36,354 bases of DNA. It comes from Clostridiales bacterium UBA4653 (GTDB lineage: Bacteria; Bacillota; Clostridia; Oscillospirales; CAG-272). The DNA is taken from positions 8,241 through 44,594 of the forward strand of contig DHMB01000020.1 of NCBI GenBank assembly GCA_002405565.1. The letters are read 5' to 3'. A program made the translations under genes and the position numbers. The notes beneath the pieces are model-generated. The model was not told where the DNA came from. It saw nothing but the letters and a program-made list of their open reading frames with translations, and did not search any database. This document shows positions 14,378 to 36,354 of the stretch, piece by piece (within the stretch, counting starts at the first letter, position 1; every line of letters begins with the position of its first letter).

Positions 14378-14406
14378 TTGACAAATAAAGGATTTAAGAG
14401 TATAAT
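14378..14406 (+). promoter_or_regulatory. Consensus sigma-A promoter heading the TIR/vWA/tubulin-like cluster
   Basis: Perfect TTGACA (14378-14383), exactly 17-nt spacer, perfect TATAAT (14401-14406). Lies in a visibly AT-rich spacer, ~200 nt upstream of ATG 14604. Confidence 0.6.
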
Positions 14407-16250: not shown

Positions 16251-16342
16251 CGCGCGGCAAGACCGCTTTCAAAGGAATAAACCGGACAATGTCCGGAATT
16301 CATAAACAGACTTAACAATTTAATTTATGAGGTGATTTTTGT

Positions 16343-17866
16343 ATGACATCATGGTTTGGTAATCAATGGGGAAAATTTCTCTCCTCAATGCCCGAAAATA
16401 TCGGCGTGTTCGCTGTTATTTTCTTTCTGCTGTTTATTGCGGTAAGCGCGCTGTTTTCGCTGACAAAGCGGTTCATGCAGAACATTGCCGCTCTCGCGGC
16501 GGCGATAGTTTCGGCGTTCGTATCGTTTTTGCTCGTCGACTCGATTTACGGAATTCTTCTCAAACGCGAAGGAATTCAGGCGGCGATAAACGAACTGCTT
16601 GAGAAATTTCCGGAGCTGGGCGCGTCCTCTGAGGGAGTCGTTGCGGTTTCAAAATTCGTTGTCAGTCTTGTTGCCGTTCCCGCGCTGTTCCTCATAGTTT
16701 ACGGAATTTTCTCGCTTGTAACGTCGATAATATTCCGCAAGTATCAGAAGGAAGGCGTAAGCGGCGGGAAAAAGGCGGAAAGCAACATTTCGTCGACTGT
16801 GAAGATAATCATCGGCGTGCTTTCCGGCGTTGCGGCGTTTGTGGCATATTTCTTCCCGTCACATTCGTTTGTCGACCTTATGACGCTGCCGCCCATCCTT
16901 ATAACGGCGTTTGCGGTTGTCAAGGGAATAATGTTCTTCTTCGGAAAACACCGTCCCAAGGCAGACTGGGCGAGAAAGACCGCGGGAATCGTTTCCGGCG
17001 CGGTCACGGGGCTTATCCTCTTTGTAATGCTGATGTTCCCGTTCCTCTCTCTCGCAAACATCATAGGCGAAGGCGTCTCGGCAATACCGGAAGAGGCGCT
17101 CGCGTGCTATGAAAACGCAGAGGTTGACGAAGACCCGGATGACGTCGGCGTAATGACGACAATATTCAGCTACACGGCGAAGGCAAAGGTCTATTCGGAC
17201 AGTTACAGCAAAACCTTTGTTTCAAAGATATATCCCAAATGCGGGGTGGCGGGACTGCACAATAAGGTCGCTCCCGAAAAACAGGCGGAATCGATACTCA
17301 AAGCAACCGTTGCGCTCGGTTCGTATTATTATTGCGAAGAGCAGGGCGCCGAGTTTGCCAATGCCGATGAACGTCTCGGCGAATATATCGACGACGTTGT
17401 AGGCGATAAAAACTTAAACGATGTGTTGCAGGCGCTTTTCTGCGACACAATTTCAACCACATTTGCAGAGGAGAGCGAAAGAGACGCTTTCCGCGAAGAG
17501 ATATCCGCGACGGCAAAACTCTCTGGGCTTGAAAATCTTGATGAGCAGGCGCGTGCGGAAGAGAGCGTCAGACTTTCAAGAGTATATCAGGTTCTCTGCA
17601 AAATGCTTGTTTCAAAGATGAACAAAAGAGCGGACGGCTTTACCCCCGATGACCTCATACTCATCGGAAATATGCTCGACGCAATGAACGACACCTATTC
17701 CTTCGGCGATACGCCGGCGCCTATTCTCGAAAAGCTCCATGAGGACAAGAGTATAGGCAGGTTCATAGATCCGCAGGAAGCAATCGGAAATGTCAGCGCA
17801 GGAGAATACAGTTACACACTTTATATGGAAATTATAAATGAGAGAATTGCCGACGCCGCAAGGTAA
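16343..17866 (+). CDS. Polytopic membrane protein (about 6-7 TM helices) with an acidic helical C-terminal domain; unknown function
   Basis: 507 aa. Hydrophobic helices run through roughly aa 20-245, then a soluble Asp/Glu-rich region. GAGGTGA SD. No motif I recognise. Confidence 0.75.
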   Translation: MTSWFGNQWGKFLSSMPENIGVFAVIFFLLFIAVSALFSLTKRFMQNIAALAAAIVSAFVSFLLVDSIYGILLKREGIQAAINELLEKFPELGASSEGVVAVSKFVVSLVAVPALFLIVYGIFSLVTSIIFRKYQKEGVSGGKKAESNISSTVKIIIGVLSGVAAFVAYFFPSHSFVDLMTLPPILITAFAVVKGIMFFFGKHRPKADWARKTAGIVSGAVTGLILFVMLMFPFLSLANIIGEGVSAIPEEALACYENAEVDEDPDDVGVMTTIFSYTAKAKVYSDSYSKTFVSKIYPKCGVAGLHNKVAPEKQAESILKATVALGSYYYCEEQGAEFANADERLGEYIDDVVGDKNLNDVLQALFCDTISTTFAEESERDAFREEISATAKLSGLENLDEQARAEESVRLSRVYQVLCKMLVSKMNKRADGFTPDDLILIGNMLDAMNDTYSFGDTPAPILEKLHEDKSIGRFIDPQEAIGNVSAGEYSYTLYMEIINERIADAAR

Positions 17867-17902
17867 GGTGTTCTCAGATAACTTGGAAAGGAAGGAAACA
17901 TT

Positions 17903-20900
17903 GTGTTTTCAAAAAGGATTATCCGCATTCTGGCGCTGTGTATTGCCGCTGTATTTCTGATGGCATGCATACCGATGTCAGCCGCGCAGGCGAGCGAGGC
18001 GGAGGCGTCATACAAACGGAAGATTATTTCCGTTGTATATGACAACTCCGGCTCAATGGAGGTGCAGAGCAGAATAAATTATGCGCAGTATTCTCTTCAG
18101 ATACTGCTTTCAATGCTCGGCAGCGGCGACATTCTGACGATATCTCCGATGAACCCCGTCTCGGACGAAGAGCCGACGATTGAGGTCAAGCTCCAGGACG
18201 GAGACTGCAGCAATAAGATAAAGGAGATTGTCAACCGCAGGTCTATTACAAAGGCAAACGGCGGCACGCCGTTCGGAGCGGTTGAAAGAGCTGTCGAAGA
18301 GCTTGAAAAGCGCGGACTGAAAAAGGTTGAGGACGCGGGCGATGTTGAGCAGAGCGACGAATTCTGGCTCGTCATCCTGACGGACGGCTCGTTTGACTCG
18401 CTGGCGTCGCAGAGCAAGCTCGAGGACGCGATCGGCAAGCTGATCGGCAAATACAGCTCGCTCAGAACAATCTATCTCGGAATAGGCAGCAGCGCCGTGG
18501 ATCTTTCCTCCGGCAAGCTTGCGACTTCCGCGTCATTTACCGCACTGAAAGCGGGCGAAAAGACTTCGTTTGTTGAAAAAATGCAGACGATATGCAACAT
18601 AATGTCCGGAAGATACGCGCTCCAGCAGGATTCGTATACTATAAAAGGAAACAAGGTCACTCTTGACTTTGACAGAGCCGATTTCCCGTTCCGCACGGTT
18701 TCCGTCCTGCTTCAGGACTGCGCCGCGGAGCTCAGGGATATAAAATATAACGGAAAGAGCATTGAGCCGTCGCAGTTCAGCGTTCTGTCCGGTAACCCGA
18801 AGGTCGGTATGGAGGACGGATACTCCGCCGTTATAAAGGGAACGCCGTATTTCTCGTCCGGAAAGATGGAGCTTGTGTTCTCGTCCGACATAAAGGCTGA
18901 GAATCTGACGGTCACGGGCGAGCCCGCGCTTACTATTCAGCCGTATTTCGAGTATCTGAAAGACGGGAAATGGGAAAGAACGGACATCCGTTATATAAAC
19001 AGTAATCTTACAAAAAACGACTCGATAAGAGTCGGATATGAAATTTATGAGCAGGCAAACGGCAAAAAGCTCAATCTTGCCTCCATCTTCGGTGACGTTG
19101 TGTCATACGTTTCGTATGCCGGCAACCGCTACGAAATAGAAGAGAAGATACCGCTTGTCGTCGGTACGAACGAAATCGGCATATCGGTAAGCGTTATGGG
19201 CGGAAGCTACTCGATGACATCATCTGCGATGTGTATCATAAGCGATAACCCGATGGCGTACCGCATTGAAGCGACGACAGAGGAAAAGCGTGAAGCTTCG
19301 TCAAACAAAATGCTTGTGAAGTTCACGGTCTACTCCGATGACAAGCCGCTCTCCAAAAAACAGCTTGAGGAATACACTCTCAAGCTCGGCGCTGTGAGAG
19401 AAAACGGCACCGACCTTCCGATGAGTTTTGAAATCAATTCATCCGGTATTGTTGTTGCCGAGGTCGACCTGAAGGACGTTCCGTCCGGCGAAAAATGCAC
19501 TGTTTCGCTGAGAGTGACCTCTCCCTTGAACGTCTCACGCGAGAAAAAGGTGGAATTCAGCGTCAAGGCGAATATATCGAAGATCGACATAGGCCCCTCC
19601 GGTGATCTTTCATCAAAATCGTTCTCGCTTACACAGTATGAACTGCTCAGCAACAAAAACGGAATGGAATTCGTCCTCATGGCGAACGGTCAGGCTTATG
19701 ACTTCACAGCCTCCGGCGACATTTCTTATTCCGTTACGCTTGATGGCAGAGATATTACAAAATATACAAAAGCGGAAGGTAACAGACTGATATTCACCCC
19801 GACGCTTGAAAGCCTCGGAGACGAGGCGGGCAAGCCCGGAAAAAAGACGGTTGAGCTGACGGTTTCGTCAGTACTGAACCCCAAGGTTTCCGGAAAGGCA
19901 ACGGCGACTCTCGAGCTTCTGAAGTCCGAAATGACGGTGACCGTCAAAGCGGACGAGAGCCCGTTGAACATAACGCCGTATCAGCTCAAAAACAACGGGC
20001 GCGGATTTGAGTTTGTCATAAAGATTGACGGAAAGACTGTCGCTTTTGATGACGGAATCATTGATTGGCAGCTGACTCTCGGCGGAACGGATATAGGAAA
20101 GTACGCTACCGTAAGCGGCGGCGGACTCAGCTTTATCCCGACGGAGGAGAGCATGGGCGGAAGTACCTCTCTCGGCGGCAGAACCGCTTCCGTGAAGGCA
20201 TGGCTTAAGGAAATCCCGGATATATCGGCGTCGTGCGACGCTTCATGGAACATCGTCGACAGTCTTTGGGAGATCGTGATATTGCCGGGCACATCAGAGG
20301 TTGACCGCTTTGCGATAGAAGACAGCGGAGCTTCTTTCAAAGTAAAACTTATGAGAGACAAGGTCTGGCTCAGCGCCGAAGAGGCGCAGGCGCTCTTTGA
20401 ATCAGGCGCGCTCAGATTTGAATGCGGAATGATCGATAAGAACTTCCTGCTTCCTGTTGGCAAGGAGATAACCTTTGAAAGCGAAGACGGAGTCGGAATA
20501 ATAACATACAGCGTCACGCGCGATCAGATAAATCCCTTTGCAAGCTTTATGGCAATGCTTATTCCGAACGGCACGCGGACAGTAAACATTTTCTGCAACA
20601 CCGCAGAAAACAGCACAGACCTCTTCTTTGTGAAGAGCGCGGCATGGTCATACATATGGAGAATACTTGTTATTCTGCTGATAATTTATCTCATAGTATG
20701 GTTTGTGCTTGCGTTCAAGGTCAAGAGCTTCCCTTCGGGAAGAATTGTGACCGTTATAAGGAGCGGAGCGTATGCGAGATTTTCCAGCAAAGACCTGAAC
20801 AAGACGTTTATCGATAAATACTTGTGGCATCTTCAGCGCCTGCTCCCCTGGAAGCTGGCAACAAATCAGCCGGATCGTGACAAGGTCACATTCTCGTCCG

Positions 20901-21220
20901 GAATAACAACGAAGGGGTCGGCAAAATCAAGCGGAACCAAGGCGAAGCTGAAGATTAAAGGAAAGCCGCCGAAGAAGCTTTATAAGATATCGTTTGTAGG
21001 GCTTCCGACCGAAATTTATACGTACATGATGTCTTTCGGCAAACCTTCGATTGGCAAGGCGCCGGGGAAGATCAACGCAGACGATTTCTTCGGATGTGTT
21101 TCTCTTGAAGATGAGATAGAAAAATATCCCGATCTTTCAAGCGGAAAATATTATGCCGAAGTCGACGACAAAAAGGGAAAAGTAACAAAGGTTACTTATT
21201 ATATGAGAACAAATTTCTAA
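17903..21220 (+). CDS. Surface-exposed vWA-domain protein with Ig-like repeats, a single C-terminal TM anchor and a Lys-rich cytoplasmic tail
   Basis: 1105 aa. Signal peptide (...IPMSAAQA/SEA). Complete MIDAS: DNSGS (18041-18055), GGTPF, ILTDG. Beta-rich repeats include a clear ~100-aa tandem duplication (~19615-19920 vs ~19960-20220). TM helix WSYIWRILVILLIIYLIVWFVLAF (~20646-20717). ~165-aa tail includes KAKLKIKGKPPKK. GTG start. Confidence 0.85.
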   Translation: MFSKRIIRILALCIAAVFLMACIPMSAAQASEAEASYKRKIISVVYDNSGSMEVQSRINYAQYSLQILLSMLGSGDILTISPMNPVSDEEPTIEVKLQDGDCSNKIKEIVNRRSITKANGGTPFGAVERAVEELEKRGLKKVEDAGDVEQSDEFWLVILTDGSFDSLASQSKLEDAIGKLIGKYSSLRTIYLGIGSSAVDLSSGKLATSASFTALKAGEKTSFVEKMQTICNIMSGRYALQQDSYTIKGNKVTLDFDRADFPFRTVSVLLQDCAAELRDIKYNGKSIEPSQFSVLSGNPKVGMEDGYSAVIKGTPYFSSGKMELVFSSDIKAENLTVTGEPALTIQPYFEYLKDGKWERTDIRYINSNLTKNDSIRVGYEIYEQANGKKLNLASIFGDVVSYVSYAGNRYEIEEKIPLVVGTNEIGISVSVMGGSYSMTSSAMCIISDNPMAYRIEATTEEKREASSNKMLVKFTVYSDDKPLSKKQLEEYTLKLGAVRENGTDLPMSFEINSSGIVVAEVDLKDVPSGEKCTVSLRVTSPLNVSREKKVEFSVKANISKIDIGPSGDLSSKSFSLTQYELLSNKNGMEFVLMANGQAYDFTASGDISYSVTLDGRDITKYTKAEGNRLIFTPTLESLGDEAGKPGKKTVELTVSSVLNPKVSGKATATLELLKSEMTVTVKADESPLNITPYQLKNNGRGFEFVIKIDGKTVAFDDGIIDWQLTLGGTDIGKYATVSGGGLSFIPTEESMGGSTSLGGRTASVKAWLKEIPDISASCDASWNIVDSLWEIVILPGTSEVDRFAIEDSGASFKVKLMRDKVWLSAEEAQALFESGALRFECGMIDKNFLLPVGKEITFESEDGVGIITYSVTRDQINPFASFMAMLIPNGTRTVNIFCNTAENSTDLFFVKSAAWSYIWRILVILLIIYLIVWFVLAFKVKSFPSGRIVTVIRSGAYARFSSKDLNKTFIDKYLWHLQRLLPWKLATNQPDRDKVTFSSGITTKGSAKSSGTKAKLKIKGKPPKKLYKISFVGLPTEIYTYMMSFGKPSIGKAPGKINADDFFGCVSLEDEIEKYPDLSSGKYYAEVDDKKGKVTKVTYYMRTNF

Positions 21221-21248
21221 AAAAATTATTATTTAAGGAGATAAAACA

Positions 21249-24200
21249 ATGAAAAACATTCTTCTCATCGGTGTCGGAGGCACCGGCAGCAACGCGGTTG
21301 ACATTCTTACTCAGAAGAGAAAAGAATTCGGAAACCAGACAGGCAACAGAATTACATCGATCGTGTTTGATACGGACGCCGGCAGCGTTGAAAATATTTC
21401 AGCGGCTACCATTATTCCCATGACGGACAATGCAAGCGTCGGCACCATCTGCGACAGAATAGGCACTTCGTACCTGCGCGAATGGTTCCCCTGCGACGAC
21501 ACATGGGTGGATTACAAGTCCGTCAGAGCGCAGGAAATGGTCAGAGGCGCATCGCAGTGGCGTAAGAAATCGTTCCTTGCATTCGTCAACCTTATGAATA
21601 AGCCTATGGCGCGCAACACCTTTATCAATGCGCTTGAATCAATGGTCGCAAACCCCGGCGCTTCATGCGAGGTATATGTCATTTCCTCAGTTGCAGGCGG
21701 AACGGGCTCCGGTTCATTTATACCGATCGCTCTTTATACCAAGAGATATCTTCGTAAGTGCCTCGGAAAGGATCCGATCGTAAACGCTATGATCGCCCTT
21801 CCCGATATATATGCCGACAGTCAGACCCCCGATAACAAGGTCAAGGTCTATGCAAACGCATATGCGATTCTTCGTGAGCTCAACGCCATAAACCTTGTTG
21901 CTCACAACTTCAATGACGACAACAAGACAGAAAAGAAGGCTCCTGTCAAATTCCGCATAGGTGATCCGAGAGAGCCCAACGTAGGCGTTCTGTTTGATTC
22001 GGAAGACGAGCAATACTGGACGCCTGAAGCCGCTCCGTTTACGCAGATATTTATACTCGACCGTATTCCCGGACTGAAATCCATCTCGGCGCACGATATG
22101 GTAATGGCTGACTCGCTTTATACTCTGATTTGTACGGATATCGGCGCGGCATTCGACAGCGAAGCGTCAAACCATGAGATTCTTCATTCGCAGAGCAACG
22201 GCAGCAACGCCATTTATGCAGGAATTTCCACATCACAGATACGTTTCCCCAGAGAGACGATTCTTGAATATCTCTCCCGCAGAAAAGCTCTCGGCGATTG
22301 CGAAAAGGAATGGATGGTTCTCCATCGCAAGGTCGAGGCGACGATTGCAGAGAAGATTCAGCAGGCAAAAGATAACAATGACAGATACGTTCTCAAGGAC
22401 GGCGGTTATGCAGAGCTCGTTTTGCAGTCGCTTGCAGACCTTGCCGAGAACGGAACAGGTATTCTTGTCTCCGATATGGTTGACCGCGGTACAGCGGTTG
22501 TTGAAGACGGAAAGAAGACCGACAAGTCAACCGAAGAAAAGTTCTTCGCAGAGCTCAAAAAGGAAATCGACAAGAGAGTTCTTTCGGATGAGAGATATTT
22601 CGAGGAAAACTGCGAGCGGCCTGCTCCTGAAAAGGCAAGTGCCAAAGAAGCTGTTGTCGAGAGCGCAGAAGCATGGAGAGAAGAAGGTCTCTTTGAGTAC
22701 TTTGCAGAATGTGTAAGACTTATCAAGAATTCTTCCACGAGCCTTGCGGAAGCTGTTCTTTCTCTTGACGAAAACCGCGGAATGGGACTTAACAAGTCGC
22801 TCTCTGTAATCGAAACGCTCCTTAAAAAGGATAATAAGTTCATTCACCCCGTTGCAGCAATGGTACAGCTTTGCAGACTGAAATGTCATCTCGCCGATTT
22901 CCTCAAGATAGGAAAGGGTGACTTCCAGTGGGAAGAAATCAAGAAGAGATCTGTTGATTCGCTTCCCGCATGGGCATTGGAACTTGACGATGATAGCGCA
23001 CCTGTTGACGACAAGAAGATTGTCAGCCGCAGTGCATATGCAAAATCGACAAGCGGCGTACAGAGATTCTCCGATCTCTGCGACGACAGTGAAACATATC
23101 TTTCAAAACATACCGATGCGCGTTGTGACCACGAGTGCGTTGAGGCAGACGTCAAAACGCTTTTCAAGAAAATACGCAAGAGAGCTGTTGATCAGTTCCA
23201 GTATGCCGTATTCAAGAAAATTTCCGATAACCTTGATATACTCATAGAAAAATACCGCAACTTCTTCTCCCGTTTCGACAAGGAAAGAGAAGAGCTTGAA
23301 GAAGAAACAAAGACTGTTCTCCGCAAGGACTGCGGCACGGTCGACAGCATTATAAACGTATATTCTTCAATTGCGGATAAGGAAGAAATCCTCAGAGACG
23401 TATTCAAGAACGCAGGCCCCGAGAGCGAAGCTCAGCTTGCCGAGACGGATGATATTGCCGGCAAGGGCGTATTCGCCACGGCGTACGGCGCTGCTGTTGC
23501 CGCAAGCAAACAGGACGAAACATGGAACGAGAAGGACTCCCGCGCATACCGTTCGCTCTTTACGAACATGGTTGCCGCTTACAGAGAGTATATCGCAAAA
23601 TCCGACGCGTACGCGAAGATCGCTTCGTTCAACGTTGTTCAGGCGATAGAATGTTCCTGCAAGGACAAAGATAAGCTCGAATCCGAATTCCGCACATGCT
23701 TCTCGACGGCTCAGGAGCTTGCAACTCCTTCTCTCCGTATAAATACGGGCGACGCATGCAGCGATCTTGTCAAACCTTCAAACGTCGTTGTATTCATGAT
23801 GTCGCTTGAAACAGGTAAATACATAAAGAAGAACGCCGACAAGCTCGGACTTCACCTGCCCGCAAATCAGAACAAGGAAAGCACGGTTATCCGTTCTTGC
23901 GTTGAGGAATTTGTCCGCCGCTATTCGGGCGATGACAGCGTTCGCGTTTCGATCGTTGAAAATATGCCCGATGACGTGCTCTACTGCACAGGCGAGATCA
24001 TGGACATCAGCCCTCTCCGCATTGCAAAGTTTGATGAATGCGGAACAGACAACATCTATTTCAGAAATTACAAGCAGGCGCTCTTCAATGCGAAGAGATT
24101 CGGCACGGATATGTGGAATCCTCACATCGGCAAGGACTTGCACCGTCGCGGCTACCTGCCCTATATGAACGAGGCTATGGAGGAAGAATGTGACGTCAAG

Positions 24201-28200: not shown

Positions 28201-28414
28201 TTTGCTTTGCGCAATCGAAAAGCTGTGCTTATCCGTAAACAAAGACAGTGATTCCGAGACTGTCGGAGCGCGGATATTCAAGGAAATTGAAGCCCTGCGC
28301 GGCTGTGTCGCCGCGTCGGCTCTTTCGCGGATGACGGAGACGGCGGAAGAAAAATATCGTCCTTCGGCGGTTCCGACGAAAGAAACAAACAGTAGTGAGG
28401 AGAGATTATGTTAA
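25229..28414 (+). CDS. Paralogous tubulin-like protein with degenerate nucleotide-binding signature
   Basis: 1061 aa and collinear with the upstream gene. Matching blocks: MEERIIIIGAGRTGCEAV vs MKNILLIGVGGTGSNAV; KVYTVAAPSDATGGELFLPITLY vs EVYVISSVAGGTGSGSFIPIALY; KVFGNAYASLRELNAV vs KVYANAYAILRELNAI; FSHVYVVGKIPGV..SGHISVISDMLFFL vs FTQIFILDRIPGL..SAHDMVMADSLYTL. The signature GGTGSG is replaced by DATGGE (25661-25678). Confidence 0.72.
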   Translation: MEERIIIIGAGRTGCEAVSAFAENNPGKKNIFPMFFGTDAAALDELSENGVSPKNIFRMTSKNTFGQIVRDLGEGISDWFSCTYENCYGGQRAMEHGSGFSRLKAMVSFVDFIARGGDKTIEERISEVAGDEAEYKVYTVAAPSDATGGELFLPITLYIARALWQKGVHAEYGLLLSSPTALTSGGMNEMQMTKVFGNAYASLRELNAVMSGAGGEEFSIGSENDPYIGQLYPMQGEYSENKGLFSHVYVVGKIPGVFTASGHISVISDMLFFLTSDIAQRTLSARNDNAFTFLSSASLDFPAGRAIDYIVDRAVCDDILQSMSACGNLSAYAEEMLGSEEKKAPREDQNIPESLFAIFENESVISDYINALIEATEFTDDAPVFDTECATLTEGGLCRRLFDVKSKTTEKTDKFNAIVTDCKKELSSYAEAFRLHTVRVCGLLSEKVFPAGAEGELSFASAIGIGSCRLDVVFARLCTFRKVLAKVIDDKKCNLIKMKTGESISEYTDRATSERMPVIRTDGEYLLTTEKNITKEKCESLASVLKRAGDDIRTMANLRMRYAVLELLSDFTDRLISEGKRLISDFKEVISDYGASGADREELTELESRYEDIYKEMRGALAETVAGGISDVTVSVVSGIYGSVLGINDGTPEREPAYKIYCGEKERAIKAAAEGDVMRILRRKSVTELMPQKTENDFGAYLSSIADRAMPVFSYSENRACESRPRRGVITVLPREAAEAIAAKEDGDAPKSAEDAVRDYLVRHKCLDSEFAVCDGLSAFRIICFGFAENLSLENFTLVRESDKDAKWYEEYLKCLENESKFRSVLWHPYISSCTRGIPPCIDKEFEKSRNAQICKALVYMFIGNGFSAEYDERSGKKVVFRDEGGRKYPLSVDGKSIAAGDFCGMTDYLVSNEPVARDMALAFDEYIDRNCAETVKNISGSDENDNLIDCALMRALRGNGERAEEKLPLSEMLLKYLSVGGKLAEGIADALLCAIEKLCLSVNKDSDSETVGARIFKEIEALRGCVAASALSRMTETAEEKYRPSAVPTKETNSSEERLC

Positions 28415-30450
28415 CCTACGTGATAAACACCTCTGAAAACAAAATATTTGACAGCGATCTGCTTTTTGAACTTGCCGGATATAACAAGATCAGATGGATG
28501 CATTGCAGTCTTGATAAGGTGAAGGAGTGTGCGATTGAAATATGCGATAAGCAGAATGTGCTCGGGGCGGACGCCTTCCGCATTGCTGTCATCGTGGATT
28601 TCTATTGCTTTGACAGAGTTCGCCGTCCATACGGTTACAGCGGGTATACGGATGATCCGGGCGTGGATCTTTGTCTCTATTACCCTTATATCGAAACATA
28701 CCTCTCCGATCACCTTCTCAGTCACCTTGACAGAAATAATCTGCACGCGGCAACGTGCGAAATTTACTATATACAAAACGAAAAAAATGATAAATATTCA
28801 AATATAGACAACCGCAAAGAGCAGCTGAAAAAAATCATGAAGGCTGTCGACTTCGGTGGTGCGGAAATCGAGCTTCCCGAGGAAAAGAAAGAATCGGCGC
28901 ACACGGGTGAAAGCGAAACTGACTTTATTGGTCAGAACGGAAAAACCAAGCAGGGAACAGGGAAAAATGAGGATGAAGAAAAAACTCCGGAGGAGAAATA
29001 TCCGAAATTCAGACTTTATTGCACGCCCGGCGTCTCGCTTGATTTTGAGGTCAAAGATTACCCGTATTGCGGCGGAGCCGAGATGACTTTTTCCGATTTC
29101 ACAAGAGAACTTGAAGGACGCTATTCCGGAAAAAGACATATGATATGCCATTCTTACGTAACCGCTTACGGTTGCGGCTCGGCGATGGCGGCGTTCGATA
29201 CGCTCGCGCTTTCGCTTTATCTTGTGCACATGTATGAACGCGAGGAGGACAGACGCGACAGCACGGATTTTGAAATAGATCATCTTGATCCGATCGCGCT
29301 CAGAAATGTTCTCGAAAAGGCATGGAACAAGATCCACTGCGCAAAGGAGCTTGCGCAGGAAAACAAGTGCGAATATTACGCGCTTGATTTCGAAATGGCA
29401 AACGGAAAAAAGAAAAAGGAAGAATATACAGAGCCCGACGAAAAGGAAGAGCTGAGAAAATTCCGTGCCGCCGTAAAACCTGCGGATCTTGATTTTTCTT
29501 CAGATGAGCTTTATAAGAAAATAGTTGAGTATGCTTCCAGAAGGATGAACGAGCCGAGCGAAGCCGACCGCGAGGAGCTTGACAAGCTAATGCGCGGATA
29601 TCTTGAAAACAGAGACGGCACGCGCGAGGTCGGTGTGCAGAGCGAGTTTGAACAGCTTTGCGCCACGGGCGCATTCAAAATGCAGAAGCAGTGCCCGTCA
29701 AAGCTGCAATATGACATAGTCGTTGAAGAAAGACAGACGAAGATATCCGAGATTTTTGAGAGAACTCTCAAAGCCGAATATCTGAAAACAGACTATGCCG
29801 AAGTCTATAAAGAGGCGAGCGAGCATTATGCCGAGCATAAAGAGCTTATGCGCCAGAGGAGCAGATGGATAGTTGCCGATATCGTGCTTTTCATAATAAT
29901 GGTTGCGTCGATACTTGTCCCGTTCCATTATATGCAGGCGCTGAAAAGCGGCGGCGTTGTATATGACATCATGCGTTACATATGGACAGCCGCGCCGTTT
30001 ATGGCGCTGTTCGTCCTGTGCTTTATAATCATAGTCATAACGATTTCCGTAAGACTGAAACGCGTCAGGGAACGACTTCAGCTATGCCTTGAGATATGTA
30101 TCGCAAAGCATGCGTTTTCAATGTCGGCACTGAAAAGACGTTATGAAAAAGAGCTTCCCGAGATTGAAAAGATAAGATACGAAATCCGCGGGATTGCAAA
30201 TCTTCAGGAGAAGAACATCGAAAAGAACAGAAACATCAGACTTCACAGGGAAACGCTCGAGAATGTTGAAAACAGACTCAGCGCGATTCTCAATAACCTC
30301 GGAGTTGAGCCCAAGCCCGAAAAGCATGAGGATCTCTCCGACGAATTCGACGCACAGAAGCCCATAAACGCTCCGATAAACAGCGTTTACAGAATTTTCT
30401 CCGTCGAAGCGATAGAGTCGATGTTTCCGGACAAAAGGGGGAAACAGTAA
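28408..30450 (+). CDS. Unknown protein with cytoplasmic N-domain, charged linker, TM hairpin and C-terminal coiled coil
   Basis: 680 aa. ATG overlaps the upstream stop (ATGTTAA), with GAGGAG SD. TM helices at 29866-29928 (WIVADIVLFIIMVASILVPF) and 29983-30051 (WTAAPFMALFVLCFIIIVITISV). Heptad-like charged C-terminus. Confidence 0.78.
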   Translation: MLTYVINTSENKIFDSDLLFELAGYNKIRWMHCSLDKVKECAIEICDKQNVLGADAFRIAVIVDFYCFDRVRRPYGYSGYTDDPGVDLCLYYPYIETYLSDHLLSHLDRNNLHAATCEIYYIQNEKNDKYSNIDNRKEQLKKIMKAVDFGGAEIELPEEKKESAHTGESETDFIGQNGKTKQGTGKNEDEEKTPEEKYPKFRLYCTPGVSLDFEVKDYPYCGGAEMTFSDFTRELEGRYSGKRHMICHSYVTAYGCGSAMAAFDTLALSLYLVHMYEREEDRRDSTDFEIDHLDPIALRNVLEKAWNKIHCAKELAQENKCEYYALDFEMANGKKKKEEYTEPDEKEELRKFRAAVKPADLDFSSDELYKKIVEYASRRMNEPSEADREELDKLMRGYLENRDGTREVGVQSEFEQLCATGAFKMQKQCPSKLQYDIVVEERQTKISEIFERTLKAEYLKTDYAEVYKEASEHYAEHKELMRQRSRWIVADIVLFIIMVASILVPFHYMQALKSGGVVYDIMRYIWTAAPFMALFVLCFIIIVITISVRLKRVRERLQLCLEICIAKHAFSMSALKRRYEKELPEIEKIRYEIRGIANLQEKNIEKNRNIRLHRETLENVENRLSAILNNLGVEPKPEKHEDLSDEFDAQKPINAPINSVYRIFSVEAIESMFPDKRGKQ

Positions 30451-33400
30451 ATGATTGTTGCAGCCAAAATATTATTTCTGATAGTACTGCTTTTGGTTCT
30501 GTCATATCCGTTTCTGCCTTTTTCATCGAAGGCAAAGCGCTTTTCAACGTTTTCATCGCTGAGATACAATCCCCCGTTCAACAAACGTAATTTCATATTC
30601 ATTCCGATAACAATTGCGGAATTTATAGTCGTGGCGCTGATTTTTGAGATAATCGCGGGACTTTGCGATAAATTCGGAAGTCTGCCGTTTGTTTCGACAA
30701 TCATAAGCGCTGTTGAAGCAAAGCTCGGCGTTCAGGGCGGATTTTTCGTCTTTGCCGTGCGCGTGCTTCTGATAAACATTGCAATTCTCTATGCGTTTAT
30801 ATTTGTAAAAGGAATATTGCGTCATGTGTTTATCGACCCCATATTCGGTTGGGGCAAAAACGGGAAGATGACCCGTAAAGAGCGCAAGGCGCTTGCGGAA
30901 AAACGTAAACTTGAAAAGAAAAAGAGAAAAGAAGCAAAGAAAAGAGGCGAGAAATACGTTGCCGAGGAGCCCGCTCCCGAGCCCGTGAAAACGGATGACG
31001 GAGAGGAAGACCCGGAGAACGGTCACATAATGCGCTTCCCGCACCTTGAAGGTGACGAGGAAAAGGATGAGAACAAGAAGCGCTCCGGCGAAACGGAGAA
31101 GGAGTCATCCTCCGAAACGGAAGGAATTCCGAAGGAAGAAGAGCCGCCGGCTCCGCCCAAATCGGAGTTTATGCGCGCGATACTCGGTATCTTCTTCGAA
31201 GCTCCCGATTATCTTTATGCAAGACCGAGCGTTGCCCGCGCAACGGCAGTTCTGCAAACCTTCCTTTATATTGTCGAGGCAATATATATACTCCTCTTTG
31301 TCAACATGGCGGCAATGCTCGTTTTTGCAATGCCCGAATGGATGTACAGAGTGGCGCAGATCATAAGAAGCTTCTATATTTACCCGTTTATCTCCGTTAT
31401 ATTCCTTCAGGAGATATGCAATTTCCTGCGCACAAAGCAGCCCGTGGAAAAGCCCGAGGAGCTTATGCAGAAGGAAGAAGAGGAAACAAAGAAGGAATGT
31501 GAAGCGAGACTTGTCGCGCTCAACAACGAGCTGACAAAGCGCTTCGATGAAAATCATTTCTTCCGTTATTATCCCGAGCTGCCCTGCAAGGAGGTTCCGG
31601 AATACGTTTGCACTAACATTCCTTACGCAAGTGCGCTTGCGTATATACGCGAATACGCCAGACAGAATTCGGGGCATGTTGTCCAGAGTTATATGGAAAG
31701 TCTGGACGCGGTGTTCAATGACAACCACATCTATTTCGGCACGTCATTCTATTCGGAATACGGCGAATATCTCATTTCTTATGCCTATACCAGACTTCTC
31801 TCCGGCGCGAGAATGATATTCATCATTTCCGATATGGAAAAGGCGGAGTCGCTCCGCAGATACATACGCGACAGACTTACCTCCATGACGAATTGCAGTA
31901 ACAATGCGACATGGCGCGTATATATAAAGGGAGAAAGACTTGACCAGGCGGACATTCTCATCGCCACACCCGAGGATTTCCGCGATGACAGCATAATAAA
32001 CCATTATCCCGCGTTCTTTGAAGAGGTCTGCAACGCGGTGTTTGTGGACGCGGATCGCATAACCGCGATATACGGTTATCTTTGCCCGATTCTTTCGATG
32101 AGACTGAAAAAGGCGACGGAAAACAGGATCCGCTTTATATTCCTCACGCGTGACATCATGCGCGGATTTGCGGCAAAAAGCCTGCCGAGATATTTCTGTA
32201 TCGACAAGGTTTATACATGCAGCAGTGCGCTTGAAAACGAGAGCACCGCATACACGCTTCTCAACAGAGAAAGCAAGCACCACAGAATTTATAATAAGCA
32301 CGGGCAGACTCTCACGAGCCTTGAATGTATCGTCGCCGAGCAGGCGGTGAAGTTCGGTGTTGACGGAGTCAAGGTTATAAGCGGCGCGCCGATCGACCAT
32401 GCGGACGCAGTTTCCCTTGCGACAAAGGGCGTTGAGCTGAATGAATTCTATAAGCCCGTTCCGAAGATAAACTACATGATCTATGCGGATGACAGGTGTA
32501 ACCTCGCTTCCGCCATCTATACGTGCACCCGCTTCAGGGGACATGTAAAATCCATTGCAAACATTATCTCCAAGCCCTATCTTCTCCGCGACTACTTCGT
32601 CTTTATGGCGAGCAACGGCGAATATATAAACCGTTCATCGTTCATTCAGCCGCGTGCCGTTGAGAGCATGGACGTCGGAAAGCTGAGCCTGCTCCGTATC
32701 TTCTGCGAAGCCAGCATGGATGACGGAATGTCGCTTGCGAAGTTCTGCGAGAAGATGAGAAACATCATTGAAATGGTCGGCAACCGTTTTTCGTCGGCGC
32801 CGAGCTGTTTCTGCGGTGATATGATCGACAAGATCAAGAGCGGGGAGCTTGTGCCCGACGAGGATGACTATGCCGCATATCTTGTCTCCGGACTTTTTGA
32901 TTATGCCGGCACGGGCAAAGATCGCAGCGAGGGCAAGAAGGCGAAGGATTACTATCTTATCGTCGACTCCAAATACAGCACCTCCGCAAGTCGCGACAAG
33001 ACAATCTGCTTTAAGAGAAGCAAATATTTCTTTGACAGACTTACGGACAAAAACAAACGCGTCGAGCTGCGGTTAAATGACTCGACGATAGGCTATCTTG
33101 ACACGTTCCCGGGCAGAGTTCACCAGCAGTATATGGTGGGGCAGAGTATCATCTTCCGCAACATGGAATATGAGATAGGCGAAATATCGGACGACAGCAG
33201 CGTAATTTACCTGCGCAACGAAAACGTCACGTTCAAAAACTCGCTCGATACGTTCTTTTTGCGTCGTTATGACGTCAGAAATCTTGAAAAGGTCGGGGAC
33301 GAGGGTATCCTTTACCGTTCAAACTCCAACCTTGCCGAGATACGCGTCTCGCACGCGATAGCCGATATCACCGGCGAAAACTACGGCTTCTTTACGCTGA

Positions 33401-36354
33401 CGTGCGACAATCAGACGCTTGATTTCTCGCATGGCGTCGAGGGTAACCCCTGGGTCGGCGAGGCGAGAGTAAACGAAACGGCAAGAAAGCTCAAAGGAGC
33501 CGATTGTCTTGTTGTCACGCTGCGCGCGAGAGTTGAATGTAACGACGAAATGCGAATTCTGATTTCGGTCGTTTTCAATGAATTCATAAAGACGATATTC
33601 CCGGATACTTACAGGCTTCTTTCCATATGCCCTGTGCTTGCGTCGCCCATTGAAAACGCATGGGACGGCGACAAGTCGACGGATGAGCAGATACGCGTTC
33701 TTTATCCGTATCTTGCAAATTCGTGCCTAAAAGAAACCGACGATCATATCATGAGATTTATCATGGTCAACGACTGCGCGGACGACGTCGGAATTCTTGA
33801 CTGGTTCTATGACAAAAAAGCAAACTATATGAGGGAGTTCCTCTCGCATATATATTCATATATGCAGTGGCTCAAGATTTGCGGCAAGCCCGGAGCATAT
33901 ATATACTTTGGAGAAGACAAGCTTCCCGCATGCTTTGACCTTGAAGGCTGTTGCACCGTCTTTGACGGGCTCGGGCTCATCCTCAGCGACGACGGCGAGA
34001 CCGAAATTGAGACGGCAGGCAACTTTGAAGTGCTCTCAAGGACGAAGAGATGTGCATTCTGTCACAGAGTTGTTGAAAGCGGAAGATATGCGTTGTTTGA
34101 CAAGAAGCGCTATATCTGCGTTGACTGCTTTGACGTTGTCCGCGACAGAGATCAGCTCCGCGCACTTGTTCAGGAAGTCTATGAATACCTCAGAAAGACT
34201 TATCCGGACGTTGTATTCGGACAGACGGGCTTTGATATCGATAAGAGCTATGAGCTCGGCGAAGATCAGGTGCTCAGCGAAAATTATTACCGTATTGACT
34301 ATGACAGCCGCACGGTATATATAGAAAAAGAATTGCCTGTCACAAACGCGAGAGTTGCCATATTGCGCGGAATTATCGGCATGTGGCAGTATGACAATCA
34401 GCTTCTCATACCTCAGTCAAACGGACAGCTTTATTTCGAGGAGCTTTATTATCTCCGCGGACTCGGCAAGAACGAAAGCGCAGACTGGATACACGACGCG
34501 CTGGACGCCAATACCGCGTTTGTCATAAAGGATATAGAAGATTACATATCCGGAAAGGCAGAGACGGAAGAAACGCCGGATGAAACGCCGGAAGATACGG
34601 ACGACGTTGACAGCGTCGACGAAGCCGACGAGACAGACGAAGCCGGCGAAACCGATGAAAGCAAGGAAGCGCCGGAGACGGTCGAACCCGAAAAGTCCGA
34701 AGAAGAGCCTGCGCAAGAGCCGACAGAAGGCTCCCGCCGCACGAGCTTCACATATATGTGGGAAGTAATTGCGGAAATGCAGGAAGACGAGGACGACGAA
34801 GGCAGTGACGGCGACTATTCAAACGACCTCTATGATCCCAACAAGATCCCGCGTTTCTGGAAGTGCTATCTGCGCGGAGAGAAGGCGACGGATCAGGAAG
34901 ACCCGCTCTCGGACGATGACAGAGATCTTCTCGATGACGAAACTCTCGATAAGCTCGCGGGAGAAAGCGACGAAGAGGATGATGACAGCGACGAGAAAAA
35001 GGAGGAGACCTTGAATGACGAATGCTCCGGACGCGGAGAGATGATATTCTTCGAGCTGACCAAGCCGAACGCTCCGTTTGCGTATGAAGATCCCGCGGAG
35101 GACGCGGACGAAGAAAGCGGCGACGAAGGCACAGGCGACGGCTCCGAAAGCGAAGAAACTCCTGAAAACGAAGAGACGGAGGAGGGCGGAGAGCCCTCCG
35201 AAGTCAAAACGAAGGCTCAGCTCCGCAAGGAGGAAAAGGAACGCAAAAAGCGTCTGAAAGCCGAGGAGAAGCAGAAAAAACGGGAAGAGAAGGAAGCTCT
35301 GAAAAAAGAGAAGGAAGAGCGTAAGAAGGCTAAAAAAGAGGCTAAGAAAAAACGCGGGAAAACCGCGGAGGAAGAGCCTGCCGAGGATCCCGAAAAGACC
35401 GAGACCCCGGAGGGGACGGAAATACCGGAGACACCGGAAAATCCGGAAAATCCGGAAAATCCGGAGACGCCCGAAAATCCTGACAATTCCGAAGAAACGA
35501 AAAAGCCCAAAAAGCCGAAGAAGGAAAAGAAACCGAAGAAGGCAAAGACGCCGAAGAAGGGAAAAAAGAACAAAATCTTTGACCCGGACGAGGCGACTAA
35601 TCCCAAAATTCGCGTCTATAACGAGTTTGTCCGCCATGCATACGCATATGACAGAGGCGATATATCGAGAGAGGGCGTCACGGACGCAGAACTCCAAAGT
35701 ATATTTGCTTATGTCATCGGCGACTGGCCAGAGCTTTTCTGGCTCAGCGGTTACTCATACAACGCGCAAACCTTCAAGCTCACGTTCCGTTGCCTTGACG
35801 AAAACGGCGACGTTGACGTCCGACAGATAAAAAAGAAGATAAAGCTTCTGAAAAAAGGCGCAAAGGAATTCACAAAGGGAATAACCCGTCGTACAAAGCC
35901 GTATGACGCCTGCCTGAAAATATACCGCAGACTCATTCTCAAGCTTGATTATGACGGTATCGGACTCAACATACGCGCAGGAGAGGACATCGGTTCGGAC
36001 GACAGTCTGCGCTCGCTTTACAGCGCACTTGTCGAACACAAGGTTGTTTGCGCGGGATATGCTTTCGCAATGCAATATCTTTTGCAGTCTGTCGGGATAA
36101 GCGCGGCGTATGTTTCAAGCGAAACCGCGCCCGGCAACACATCGCATGCGTTCAATACGCTCCGCATAGGCAAGTATTGCTATTATCTCGACGCGACATG
36201 GGGCGACAATTCGAACACCATGACGGGCGAGACCAATCGCGGACGTATAACATATGACTATTTCTGCGTGCCTTACAGGGAATTCATCATGACCGGCGGT
36301 AACGCAAGGGAATATCATGAGCCGAGAAAGGAATATTATACAAATCTCGAAGAA
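30451..36354 (+). CDS. Giant (>=1968 aa, 3'-truncated) membrane protein: ~5 TM helices, degenerate SF2-helicase-like region, C4 zinc ribbon, polyampholyte low-complexity region, transglutaminase-like Cys protease core
   Basis: Not in the supplied ORF track. I checked every frame-1 codon from ATG 30451 (directly after TAA 30448-30450) to nt 36354 and found no stop (1968 codons). AAGGGGG SD about 10 nt upstream. C-terminal VVCAGYAFAMQYLL (Cys 36049-36051), TSHAFNTL (His 36145-36147) and YYLDATWGD (Asp 36190-36192) fit the transglutaminase-like C-H-D core. Confidence 0.88.
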   Translation, partial: MIVAAKILFLIVLLLVLSYPFLPFSSKAKRFSTFSSLRYNPPFNKRNFIFIPITIAEFIVVALIFEIIAGLCDKFGSLPFVSTIISAVEAKLGVQGGFFVFAVRVLLINIAILYAFIFVKGILRHVFIDPIFGWGKNGKMTRKERKALAEKRKLEKKKRKEAKKRGEKYVAEEPAPEPVKTDDGEEDPENGHIMRFPHLEGDEEKDENKKRSGETEKESSSETEGIPKEEEPPAPPKSEFMRAILGIFFEAPDYLYARPSVARATAVLQTFLYIVEAIYILLFVNMAAMLVFAMPEWMYRVAQIIRSFYIYPFISVIFLQEICNFLRTKQPVEKPEELMQKEEEETKKECEARLVALNNELTKRFDENHFFRYYPELPCKEVPEYVCTNIPYASALAYIREYARQNSGHVVQSYMESLDAVFNDNHIYFGTSFYSEYGEYLISYAYTRLLSGARMIFIISDMEKAESLRRYIRDRLTSMTNCSNNATWRVYIKGERLDQADILIATPEDFRDDSIINHYPAFFEEVCNAVFVDADRITAIYGYLCPILSMRLKKATENRIRFIFLTRDIMRGFAAKSLPRYFCIDKVYTCSSALENESTAYTLLNRESKHHRIYNKHGQTLTSLECIVAEQAVKFGVDGVKVISGAPIDHADAVSLATKGVELNEFYKPVPKINYMIYADDRCNLASAIYTCTRFRGHVKSIANIISKPYLLRDYFVFMASNGEYINRSSFIQPRAVESMDVGKLSLLRIFCEASMDDGMSLAKFCEKMRNIIEMVGNRFSSAPSCFCGDMIDKIKSGELVPDEDDYAAYLVSGLFDYAGTGKDRSEGKKAKDYYLIVDSKYSTSASRDKTICFKRSKYFFDRLTDKNKRVELRLNDSTIGYLDTFPGRVHQQYMVGQSIIFRNMEYEIGEISDDSSVIYLRNENVTFKNSLDTFFLRRYDVRNLEKVGDEGILYRSNSNLAEIRVSHAIADITGENYGFFTLTCDNQTLDFSHGVEGNPWVGEARVNETARKLKGADCLVVTLRARVECNDEMRILISVVFNEFIKTIFPDTYRLLSICPVLASPIENAWDGDKSTDEQIRVLYPYLANSCLKETDDHIMRFIMVNDCADDVGILDWFYDKKANYMREFLSHIYSYMQWLKICGKPGAYIYFGEDKLPACFDLEGCCTVFDGLGLILSDDGETEIETAGNFEVLSRTKRCAFCHRVVESGRYALFDKKRYICVDCFDVVRDRDQLRALVQEVYEYLRKTYPDVVFGQTGFDIDKSYELGEDQVLSENYYRIDYDSRTVYIEKELPVTNARVAILRGIIGMWQYDNQLLIPQSNGQLYFEELYYLRGLGKNESADWIHDALDANTAFVIKDIEDYISGKAETEETPDETPEDTDDVDSVDEADETDEAGETDESKEAPETVEPEKSEEEPAQEPTEGSRRTSFTYMWEVIAEMQEDEDDEGSDGDYSNDLYDPNKIPRFWKCYLRGEKATDQEDPLSDDDRDLLDDETLDKLAGESDEEDDDSDEKKEETLNDECSGRGEMIFFELTKPNAPFAYEDPAEDADEESGDEGTGDGSESEETPENEETEEGGEPSEVKTKAQLRKEEKERKKRLKAEEKQKKREEKEALKKEKEERKKAKKEAKKKRGKTAEEEPAEDPEKTETPEGTEIPETPENPENPENPETPENPDNSEETKKPKKPKKEKKPKKAKTPKKGKKNKIFDPDEATNPKIRVYNEFVRHAYAYDRGDISREGVTDAELQSIFAYVIGDWPELFWLSGYSYNAQTFKLTFRCLDENGDVDVRQIKKKIKLLKKGAKEFTKGITRRTKPYDACLKIYRRLILKLDYDGIGLNIRAGEDIGSDDSLRSLYSALVEHKVVCAGYAFAMQYLLQSVGISAAYVSSETAPGNTSHAFNTLRIGKYCYYLDATWGDNSNTMTGETNRGRITYDYFCVPYREFIMTGGNAREYHEPRKEYYTNLEE
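35425..35487 (+). repeat. In-frame 9-nt tandem repeat (Pro-Glu-Asn/Thr units) inside the giant ORF
   Basis: Seven 9-nt units. Three are perfect ccggaaaat copies (35434-35442, 35443-35451, 35452-35460), flanked by ccggagaca, ccggagacg, cccgaaaat and cctgacaat. Encodes PETPENPENPENPETPENPDN. Confidence 0.85.

Follow-up and report, generated by a model that had tools for sequence, protein, structure and literature searches.

A gene running past the end of the analyzed stretch encodes a 2083-residue membrane protein, with a predicted ATPase-dead helicase fold and a transglutaminase-like domain, in a clostridial FtsZl1 tubulin gene cluster

The last 5.9 kb of a 36,354-nucleotide (nt) stretch of DNA from Clostridiales bacterium UBA4653 (contig DHMB01000020.1, positions 8,241 to 44,594 of the forward strand; hereafter the window) raise a simple question: which strand, if either, encodes protein here, and what kind? 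A program-made list of open reading frames (ORFs) shows short plus-strand ORFs and four minus-strand ORFs in this interval, which lies downstream of two genes for FtsZ-like FtsZl1 (Pfam Tubulin_2) proteins. A preliminary description made from the sequence had proposed an unlisted plus-strand ORF of at least 1968 codons, hidden under these antisense "shadow" ORFs and dropped from the list for want of a stop inside the window. We show that this frame is one genuine gene for a 2083-amino-acid (aa) polytopic membrane protein. The best reading of its setting is that the cluster is a variant FtsZl1 tubulin-vWA system, of which this giant protein is the largest component; to the more specific reading that the protein is a membrane-tethered scaffold or sensor plus the thiol-enzyme output of that system, with a role that leans toward biological conflict, we give a probability of roughly 50%.

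Frame +1 runs from ATG 30451 to the last base of the window (30451-36354, + strand), 1968 codons without a stop; from base composition, such a run would arise by chance with a probability of ∼1e-45. The ORF lister leaves out ORFs that run off the end of their source, so the proposed reason for the omission was correct, and the four antisense ORFs are exactly those that had been named (Table 1). With a codon-usage table trained on Pfam-confirmed housekeeping genes from the same window, frame +1 scores 0.38 bits/codon, compared with 0.30 to 0.51 for the training genes and 0.17 for the best antisense frame, and of 18 sliding 600-nt windows it ranks first in 17, all except the one in a Glu/Lys/Pro-rich low-complexity linker. 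Composition is nearly tied in the interval 34819-35697, that of the longest antisense ORF, where homologs and a conserved motif favor the plus frame. This comparison, which had been suggested as a check, thus favors the plus strand and leaves the antisense ORFs as shadows. Aligned with a 67%-identical ortholog (L004), the giant gene diverges by 0.30, 0.22, and 0.60 at the three codon positions, and 580 of the 1133 identical residues are encoded by differing synonymous codons; this is the signature of purifying selection on frame +1.

Both ends of the gene can be placed. The start cannot lie farther upstream, because the 680-aa gene that comes before, p680, ends in frame with a TAA directly preceding ATG 30451; the abutting TAA/ATG, together with a GGGGG ribosome-binding (Shine-Dalgarno) site 8 nt 5′ of the ATG, therefore fixes the start and indicates that p680 and the giant gene are translationally coupled. 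By looking up the exact upstream protein, we retrieved an 81-kb contig (L001; ENA ERZ808294 NODE_145) that overlaps the window by 7,947 nt, with no difference in the overlap, and on which a gene of 2083 aa is called, whose stop lies 115 codons (345 nt) past the window end (L001:18293-18295). Extension of the contig, another suggested check, thus yields the full protein, and the gene is indeed the largest of its cluster and runs past the window end. The giant protein has ∼84 full-length homologs (38 to 97% identity), and its cluster at ≥90% identity holds 170 member sequences, mostly of 2072 to 2079 aa, from many samples.

It might be objected that the long frame is not one gene, either because an assembly or sequencing artifact has joined two genes or because the minus-strand ORFs are the real ones. 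The core and the transglutaminase domain of the protein are separate genes in some lineages, as the first version would have it, and for the second, an antisense frame scores almost equal to the plus frame across the low-complexity linker. However, an artifact is hard to reconcile with an independent assembly identical across 7.9 kb, with the 170 sequences from many samples, or with fused forms of 1744 to 2176 aa in many lineages, and minus-strand coding is contradicted by the codon-position divergence and by a conserved peptide motif inside the interval that an antisense ORF covers. For practical purposes, we regard both versions as refuted. The unlisted ORF itself is an ordinary by-product of ORF listing, although it carries a lesson for annotation: ORFs truncated at contig ends, plus antisense shadows, can hide the largest gene of a cluster. 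The rare, well-conserved, and unannotated family that it encodes is more interesting.

The most conserved part of this family is a core (aa 326 to 1350) that we modeled with AlphaFold2 on 83 homologs (pLDDT score, 87.4; predicted template modeling score, 0.85). In a Foldseek search of the PDB, the best match to the model was MrfA/YprA of Bacillus subtilis (6ZNP_A), the prototype among DUF1998 helicases, at E 1.3e-18 over ∼920 aligned columns, with a TM-score, normalized to the target, of 0.53; Hel308, Brr2, RecQ, Lhr, and HamB matched only at E ∼1e-7 to 1e-9 and in the RecA domains alone, and a viral structure library returned only generic superfamily 2 (SF2) helicases. In the model, an N-terminal strand is followed by RecA1, RecA2, a helical domain, a β-rich part with very long antiparallel hairpins, and a zinc site, an order that agrees with the published YprA scheme of NTR-RecA1-RecA2-helical-OB-CON-DUF1998 (10.1101/2025.09.15.676423), OB and CON being assigned as a region and not per residue. 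Pfam, NCBIfam, PADLOC, and the PDB, the last searched with a single sequence and with a family profile, gave no sequence match to the core. The helicase relationship is structural only, because hhalign comparison of the family alignment with the verified MrfA core (6ZNP_A residues 56 to 417) gave no signal (probability, 0.4%).

The zinc ribbon noticed in the preliminary description is formed by C1201, C1204, C1223, and C1226, invariant in 83 of 83 homologs; it is placed where the DUF1998 zinc cluster sits and weakly matches the ClpX zinc-binding domain. We mapped the SF2 motifs by strand-loop-helix topology in the model, not by residue-level superposition. The loops so assigned to motifs I and II are both nearly invariant in the family, and neither appears canonical. 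At the motif I (Walker A) position, HIYFGTSFYSEYGEY in this protein, the family consensus is H-v-Y-F-x-a-S-F-Y-S-E-x-G-E-Y, and not one of the 83 members has a Lys or Arg at aa 426 to 441; motif II reads (V/I)-F-(I/V)-D-[A/V/T/S]-D-[R/K] across the family, so that the catalytic Glu of DExH is absent; and no GxxxxGK[ST] motif was found anywhere in the core. An exhaustive phmmer scan of 1.84 billion representative sequences returned 145 relatives in all, including a second tier at 22 to 29% identity in the same register. Because this tier has the same transmembrane (TM) anchor, degenerate motifs, and zinc ribbon, the canonical ATPase site appears to have been lost anciently from a fold that is still constrained, making the core a predicted pseudo-helicase rather than part of a decaying gene.

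Could the core nevertheless be a working helicase or DNA translocase with a noncanonical nucleotide site, pumping or unwinding DNA at the membrane, for example in DNA uptake, chromosome translocation, or plasmid segregation with tubulin filaments? The entire MrfA-like architecture is kept, zinc domain included; E662 and N664 in a motif V-like element are invariant, as are R694 and G697 in a motif VI-like T-R-F-R-G; and tubulin-like filaments do move DNA in the TubZ and PhuZ systems. We judge this improbable in view of the missing P-loop Lys/Arg, which the distant tier lacks as well, the missing acidic catalytic Glu of motif II, and the want of any GxxxxGK[ST] in the core.

We therefore keep to a pseudo-helicase when comparing the protein with the MrfA/YprA (DUF1998) group, namely, MrfA (6ZNP), DrmA/DrmB, DruE, Dpd, and the ARMADA, BRIGADE, and TALON helicases. 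Its core has the same domain order and a four-Cys zinc domain, but no detectable sequence similarity, Walker A Lys, or DExH Glu; it adds an N-terminal five-TM anchor and linkage to tubulin-like genes, and it has a transglutaminase-like enzyme, as fusion or partner, in place of a nuclease. YprA-type helicases and folds are tied to DNA repair and defense systems, and the 2025 survey of YprA helicases contains no membrane-bound, tubulin-linked, or transglutaminase-linked branch (10.1101/2025.09.15.676423), as expected because sequence searches cannot reach the giant-protein family. If the model is right, the YprA/DUF1998 fold would extend from DNA repair and antiphage systems to a membrane-bound, nonmotor setting that sequence searches miss.

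The "recognizable catalytic core" that had been seen near the end of the frame is a transglutaminase-like Cys-His-Asp domain, whose triad codons all lie within the window, although the window cuts the module. Pfam PF01841 matches the window protein just under its gathering score (E 3e-4; 21.3 bits against 23) and a stand-alone ortholog above it (26.8 bits), and several giant-protein homologs bear a precomputed PF01841 match. NCBIfam NF045980 (the Mycoplasma MAG6410 family of transglutaminase-related lipoproteins) matches the module at E 2.5e-14, and PDB 9CRN_A ("transglutaminase-like domain-containing protein") does so at E 7e-14 with a single sequence and, over ∼310 residues, at 1.3e-25 with a profile. 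The triad motifs VVCAGYA (Cys1867), HAFN (His1899), and LDATWGD (Asp1914) stand in register with VCNGYA, HAWN, and VDVTWGD of 9CRN and are found in 51 of 55 fused homologs and all 6 stand-alone forms. Among members of the transglutaminase-like superfamily (9CRN, PF01841, and MAG6410), 9CRN aligns along the entire ∼310-aa module, N-terminal helical part included. Whereas 9CRN is an uncharacterized stand-alone protein, for which we found no paper in the literature searched, here a membrane pseudo-helicase tethers the module, which is predicted to lie in the cytoplasm.

Two genes replace the single one in Christensenellaceae-type loci, one for a core protein (1412 to 1497 aa), which ends in an acidic tail past a conserved linker motif, and one for a transglutaminase protein (∼400 aa), which starts 12 to 15 nt downstream of the core gene behind a strong AAGGAGG site. 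Since the two parts occur both fused and as adjacent genes, we infer that core and enzyme work together and that the linker between them is a fusion joint. In composition, the linker consists of an acidic half followed by a Lys-rich half, and its DNA (window 34565-35565, +) contains short tandem repeats (9, 12, 18, 27, and 36 nt) coding for repeated PEN/PET, acidic, and KKP units, which suggests rapid expansion and contraction at the joint. Embedded in the acidic half is the linear motif LYDPNK-IPRFWK-CYLR, whose family form is LYDPNK-[ITVM]PRFWK-(R/C)YLRG; [ITVM]PRFWK is present in 74 of 84 homologs, and the motif is absent in the distant tier of relatives. This peptide may resemble the conserved FtsZ C-terminal peptide, D-I-P-x-F-L-R-K, which docks FtsA, ZipA, and SepF.

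A Kyte-Doolittle scan places the hydrophobic segments of the giant protein at aa 1 to 19, 49 to 67, 90 to 128, 274 to 292, and 301 to 319, in agreement with the helices of the preliminary description; distant relatives have N-terminal TM segments too. Loop-charge counts show that Lys and Arg abound in the loops following TM1 and TM3, and the loop at aa 129 to 273, which is highly charged and poorly conserved, is predicted to be cytoplasmic. The likely arrangement is five TM helices, with the N terminus outside and the bulk of the protein inside. The earlier proposal that the bulk is cytoplasmic thus gains indirect support from these loops and from the SF2-helicase fold with its Cys4 zinc site; for the transglutaminase module in particular, it is supported because the stand-alone enzymes have a hydrophilic, Lys-rich N terminus with no signal peptide or lipobox.

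With the opposite topology, the protein would act at the surface as an adhesin, or be a toxin, either secreted or anchored, its transglutaminase-like domain lying outside as in lipoprotein transglutaminase-like proteins. This would sit well with the nearest NCBIfam model, that of a Mycoplasma lipoprotein, and the topology would be inverted if the stretch at aa 90 to 128 formed two TM helices, as it could. We nonetheless consider an extracellular bulk very unlikely: the 145-aa loop that would need export holds 30 Lys/Arg and 32 Asp/Glu residues, domains with an SF2-helicase fold and a Cys4 zinc site are of a cytoplasmic type, the stand-alone transglutaminase proteins have no export signal of either kind, and the partner tubulin-like proteins have no TM segments.

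What, then, does a cytoplasmic, membrane-anchored protein of this kind work with? The cluster genes stand in the order p507, p1105, tub1291, tub1061, p680, giant gene, and p585, separated by 36, 28, 104, −7, 0, and 20 nt, respectively. In tub1291, the GVGGTGSN and AGGTGSG motifs are intact and the C terminus is an acidic tail (...DDDYIDTDDVDVTDEDETN); in tub1061, the GGTGSG signature is lost, which suggests that the two may form a pair of one active and one degenerate subunit. The p680 protein has 171 homologs and an AlphaFold model (pLDDT, 85.4) with an N-terminal α/β domain, whose first strand, V-I-N-T-S, is invariant, a TM hairpin (∼aa 488 to 546), and a coiled-coil helix of ∼110 residues; compared with PDB structures, the model had no significant neighbor, and no GTPase was among its neighbors. 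Upstream of the tubulins, p1105 probably carries an extracellular vWA domain, to judge from its sequence features (Table 1), and homologs of p1105 lie directly 5′ of the tubulin gene in the three divergent lineages inspected (L058, L060, and L062/L063). PDB sequence searches with p1105 and tub1291 found nothing.

We counted synteny in 54 species-level loci from metagenome-assembled genomes of human, ruminant, and rabbit guts. The order tubulin-tubulin-p680-giant core-transglutaminase is kept in 41 to 51 of the 54, p680 itself in 51, and many of the exceptions are short contigs. A cluster from the second tier (L064; ∼25% identity) consists of a 1134-aa gene, a Tubulin_2 gene, a 726-aa gene, a gene for a giant protein with transglutaminase domain, and one for a TPR protein; the 726-aa protein is homologous to p680, whose TM and coiled-coil part is kept even at this distance. 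After this L064 cluster come genes for a TPR-rich protein (942 aa), the antitoxin MazE, an ATPase (AAA_14/DUF4143), and HsdR of a type I restriction system (L064 15457-25238), a neighborhood that resembles a defense island; closer relatives do not show such neighbors.

FtsZl1-vWA operons with lineage-specific large membrane proteins were described by Makarova and Koonin in 2010 and predicted to remodel membranes (PMC2875224); Pfam Tubulin_2 is the model of the FtsZl1 family (PMC9871819). Like those operons, the cluster combines a coiled-coil-containing FtsZl1 protein, a membrane-associated protein that is probably of vWA type, and several large membrane proteins that are lineage specific and contain low-complexity regions; unlike them, it has no GTPase, OmpA, or kinase component detectable with Pfam and NCBIfam. 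As far as the one-line descriptions of the 2010 families A1-A2 and B1-B9 set them apart, the giant protein and p680 fall outside them. Firmicutes systems that pair two tubulin genes with an extracellular vWA membrane protein were reinterpreted by Kaur et al. (2020) as GTPase-centric conflict systems; these authors predicted that GAP1-N2 tubulin conflict systems act close to the membrane (PMC7159879). With the Firmicutes version of these the cluster shares two tubulin plus coiled-coil genes and a protein, probably of extracellular vWA type, with a TM segment, yet its proteins match no DO-GTPase or other GTPase family (Pfam and NCBIfam), it has no second, vWA-YtkA protein, and we found no GAP1, although the libraries searched hold no GAP1 model. 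Conversely, no helicase-like or transglutaminase component is described for GAP1-N2 systems (PMC7159879), and neither the giant pseudo-helicase-transglutaminase protein nor p680 is in either paper (PMC2875224 and PMC7159879). The domain and system identifications are new here, going beyond the preliminary description, and the domain combination of the giant protein is undescribed in the literature searched.

FtsZl1 proteins are among the most divergent of the tubulin/FtsZ superfamily, and we found no experimental study of them since 2010 in the literature searched. To these proteins the locus adds a strongly conserved partner set, consisting of a helicase-fold protein, a tethered transglutaminase-like enzyme, and p680. 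It also offers testable handles on bacterial tubulin-like systems: a catalytic Cys, a putative docking peptide, and two natural strains, one that has the cluster and one that lacks it.

The strain without the cluster (L065; GCA_021628465.1 JAJWZL010000003.1, 10001-13310) has ∼95% nucleotide identity and the same sigA...spoIIIA...TIR-LRR...p507 region. Three deletions (composite coordinates 17725-23348, 24178-36861, and 37902-38361) take out p1105, most of tub1291, tub1061, p680, the whole giant gene, and part of p585, leaving a chimeric ORF of 767 aa; the same ORF is present in an independent sample (L066). The intact allele is common too, its 90%-identity clusters having 170 and 136 member sequences. 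We therefore class the cluster as dispensable, an accessory set of genes.

Directly upstream of the cluster in the window lies a gene for a 548-aa protein with TIR_2 and BspA-type LRR domains (14604-16250, +), which has weak ThsB-like TIR matches in PADLOC-DB v2. Full-length homologs of this TIR-LRR protein (67 to 75% identity) are encoded directly downstream of the cluster in three other loci (L058 19789-21438, L027 14785-16464, and L043 ∼14872-16464). The association thus recurs on differing sides of the cluster, and the TIR-LRR gene is kept in the cluster-deleted strain (L065 8262-9908).

In the reading that we favor, a tubulin-vWA membrane system would have the giant protein as both its membrane-tethered platform and its enzymatic output. 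The protein's ATPase-dead, helicase-like body would not be a motor but a rigid scaffold that binds or senses a partner protein or nucleic acid; the transglutaminase-like thiol enzyme, supplied in some lineages as a separate subunit, would be tethered and docked by the flexible linker with its conserved peptide. The enzyme would cleave or cross-link a protein in the cytoplasm, most plausibly one belonging to the same system, for example the tubulin-like filaments encoded in the cluster, or p680. We lean toward an accessory conflict or stress-response role over one in core cell division because of the strain-level loss, the recurring TIR-LRR gene, the defense-type neighbors of the distant cluster, the association of the YprA-type fold with defense, and the prediction that Firmicutes systems with two tubulins and a vWA protein are conflict systems (PMC7159879).

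Several points weigh against this reading. The vWA call for p1105 comes from a MIDAS-like motif and one weak, partial NCBIfam match (E 7e-6), Pfam VWA being undetected even at E 0.5. The motif mapping in the core follows secondary-structure order in a model for which hhalign to MrfA is signal-free. No PADLOC-DB v2 model matched p507, p1105, either tubulin, p680, or the giant protein, and 145 nonredundant downstream ORFs searched with Pfam and PADLOC proved to be mostly housekeeping, with single scattered defense matches and no enrichment. Most flanking genes are likewise housekeeping genes (rpsB-tsf-frr, valS, and the rpsJ operon), and we noticed no mobile-element genes in the cluster flanks. 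Inheritance of the cluster looks vertical across a broad clostridial clade, which would fit a cell-biological role as well. Finally, each functional step proposed for the giant-protein family is one that we infer.

Much of this could be accommodated by a housekeeping type of cytoskeletal or membrane-remodeling machine with the same architecture, as proposed for FtsZl1 operons in 2010 (PMC2875224). The giant protein would then be a passive membrane anchor or organizer of FtsZl1 filaments, and its transglutaminase-like domain would serve to mature structural components or cross-link them, for instance in envelope remodeling or sporulation. Membrane remodeling was predicted for FtsZl1-vWA operons with large membrane proteins in the first place; the cluster is chromosomal, with spoIIIA upstream in the window, spoIIAA-AB-sigF downstream in L062, and rpsB-tsf-frr elsewhere; it is conserved in ∼54 species; and the absence of PADLOC matches and of defense-gene enrichment in the flanks would be as expected. 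We hold this to be possible, although on balance doubtful, because the cluster is cleanly lost in a ∼95%-identical strain and hence dispensable, the family is rare (145 relatives among the 1.84 billion representatives), a TIR-domain neighbor recurs beside the cluster, and YprA-like folds elsewhere belong to DNA repair and defense. Canonical division machinery is presumably present separately, an argument also made in the 2010 paper.

A bolder extension of the conflict reading, which we rate as rather unlikely, is that the cluster represents a new class of immune or conflict system, embedded in the membrane and based on a cytoskeleton. The ATPase-dead YprA-like module would recognize either incoming foreign DNA or a signal sent by the extracellular vWA sensor; on recognition, the FtsZl1 tubulin pair would assemble in a GTP-dependent manner and so act as a threshold switch; and the tethered thiol enzyme would then process the filament or the p680 membrane hairpin and so execute the response. 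In a related variant, of the same tentative standing, the transglutaminase-like domain would modify the acidic tail of the bacterial tubulin homolog, making it a prokaryotic counterpart of vasohibin in the "tubulin code". We offer vasohibin as a functional analogy.

Table 1. Features of the giant gene, its antisense ORFs, and the cluster genes (coordinates refer to the window; scores of antisense ORFs are codon-usage scores in bits/codon)
Feature	Position	Strand	Basis
Giant gene, first 1968 of 2083 codons	30451..36354	+	Translation, L001 extension, codon scores, homologs
N-terminal membrane anchor, aa 1-319	30451..31407	+	Kyte-Doolittle scan, loop charges
Predicted cytoplasmic YprA/MrfA-like (DUF1998-type) SF2 helicase-fold core, aa 326-1350	31426..34500	+	AlphaFold2, Foldseek
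Walker A (motif I) position, aa 426-440	31726..31770	+	Strand-loop-helix nearly invariant
Motif II position, aa 530-536, VFVDADR	32038..32058	+	Family pattern lacks DExH Glu
Four-Cys zinc ribbon, C1201-x2-C1204 ... C1223-x2-C1226	34051..34128	+	Invariant in 83/83
Disordered linker, aa 1351-1744	34501..35682	+	Composition, tandem repeats
Short linear motif LYDPNK-IPRFWK-CYLR, aa 1460-1475, in acidic linker half	34828..34875	+	Invariant columns
Transglutaminase-like module, aa 1745 to ∼2060 (window cuts at aa 1968)	35683..36354	+	Pfam, NCBIfam, PDB
Triad codons Cys1867, His1899, Asp1914	36049-36051, 36145-36147, 36190-36192	+	All within window
Antisense shadow ORF, not coding	30553..31044	-	0.14 vs 0.38 for frame +1
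Antisense shadow ORF, not coding	31105..31728	-	0.10 vs 0.34 for frame +1
Antisense shadow ORF, not coding	31744..32544	-	0.12 vs 0.38 for frame +1
Antisense shadow ORF over low-complexity linker, not coding	34819..35697	-	0.40 vs 0.47 for frame +1, near tie
p1105	17903..21220	+	Signal peptide, metal ion-dependent adhesion site (MIDAS)-like D-N-S-G-S, β-rich repeats, TM aa 910-928, cytoplasmic tail
tub1291, FtsZl1/Tubulin_2 protein, 1291 aa	21249..25124	+	Pfam PF13809, E 2.4e-33
tub1061, second Tubulin_2/FtsZl1 paralog, 1061 aa	25229..28414	+	PF13809, 27.4 bits vs cutoff 27
p680, translationally coupled partner (TAA abuts ATG 30451)	28408..30450	+	Synteny, homologs, model

At the edges of the cluster, two candidates were not retained as members. 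The multi-TM protein p507 has only 7 homologs, all from close relatives, and is lineage specific. On the other side, p585 (L001 18316-20073, +) begins 20 nt after the giant gene and encodes 585 aa, with three TM segments and, at the C terminus, a weak match to the RyR domain (E 3e-5); its homologs adjoin the cluster in only 7 loci. Other lineages have, in place of p585, a pair of proteins of ∼410 and ∼285 aa or a membrane protein of ∼703 aa, and we regard all these downstream membrane proteins, each found in 4 to 7 loci, as accessory rather than core. Past p585, L001 carries opposite-strand Amidohydro_2 and TSCPD genes and then rpsJ. A σ70-type promoter with a 12/12 consensus match (TTGACA-17-TATAAT; window 14378-14406, +) lies 5′ of the TIR-LRR gene, and 68 nt past p585 there is a terminator-like hairpin whose stem is 9 bp long (L001 20141-20163, +); both are consensus matches only, and together they would bracket a transcription unit of ∼24 kb.

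Upstream of the cluster, the window contains, in order, an Obg-like fragment, UPF0029, an HD-domain gene, dnaG, sigA, a gene for a 1078-aa protein, spoIIIAA-AH, and the TIR-LRR gene. The 1078-aa protein, encoded in the sigA-spoIIIA interval (window 5899-9135, +), matched nothing in Pfam, NCBIfam, or PADLOC; it has one N-terminal TM segment and is conserved in the close strain L065.

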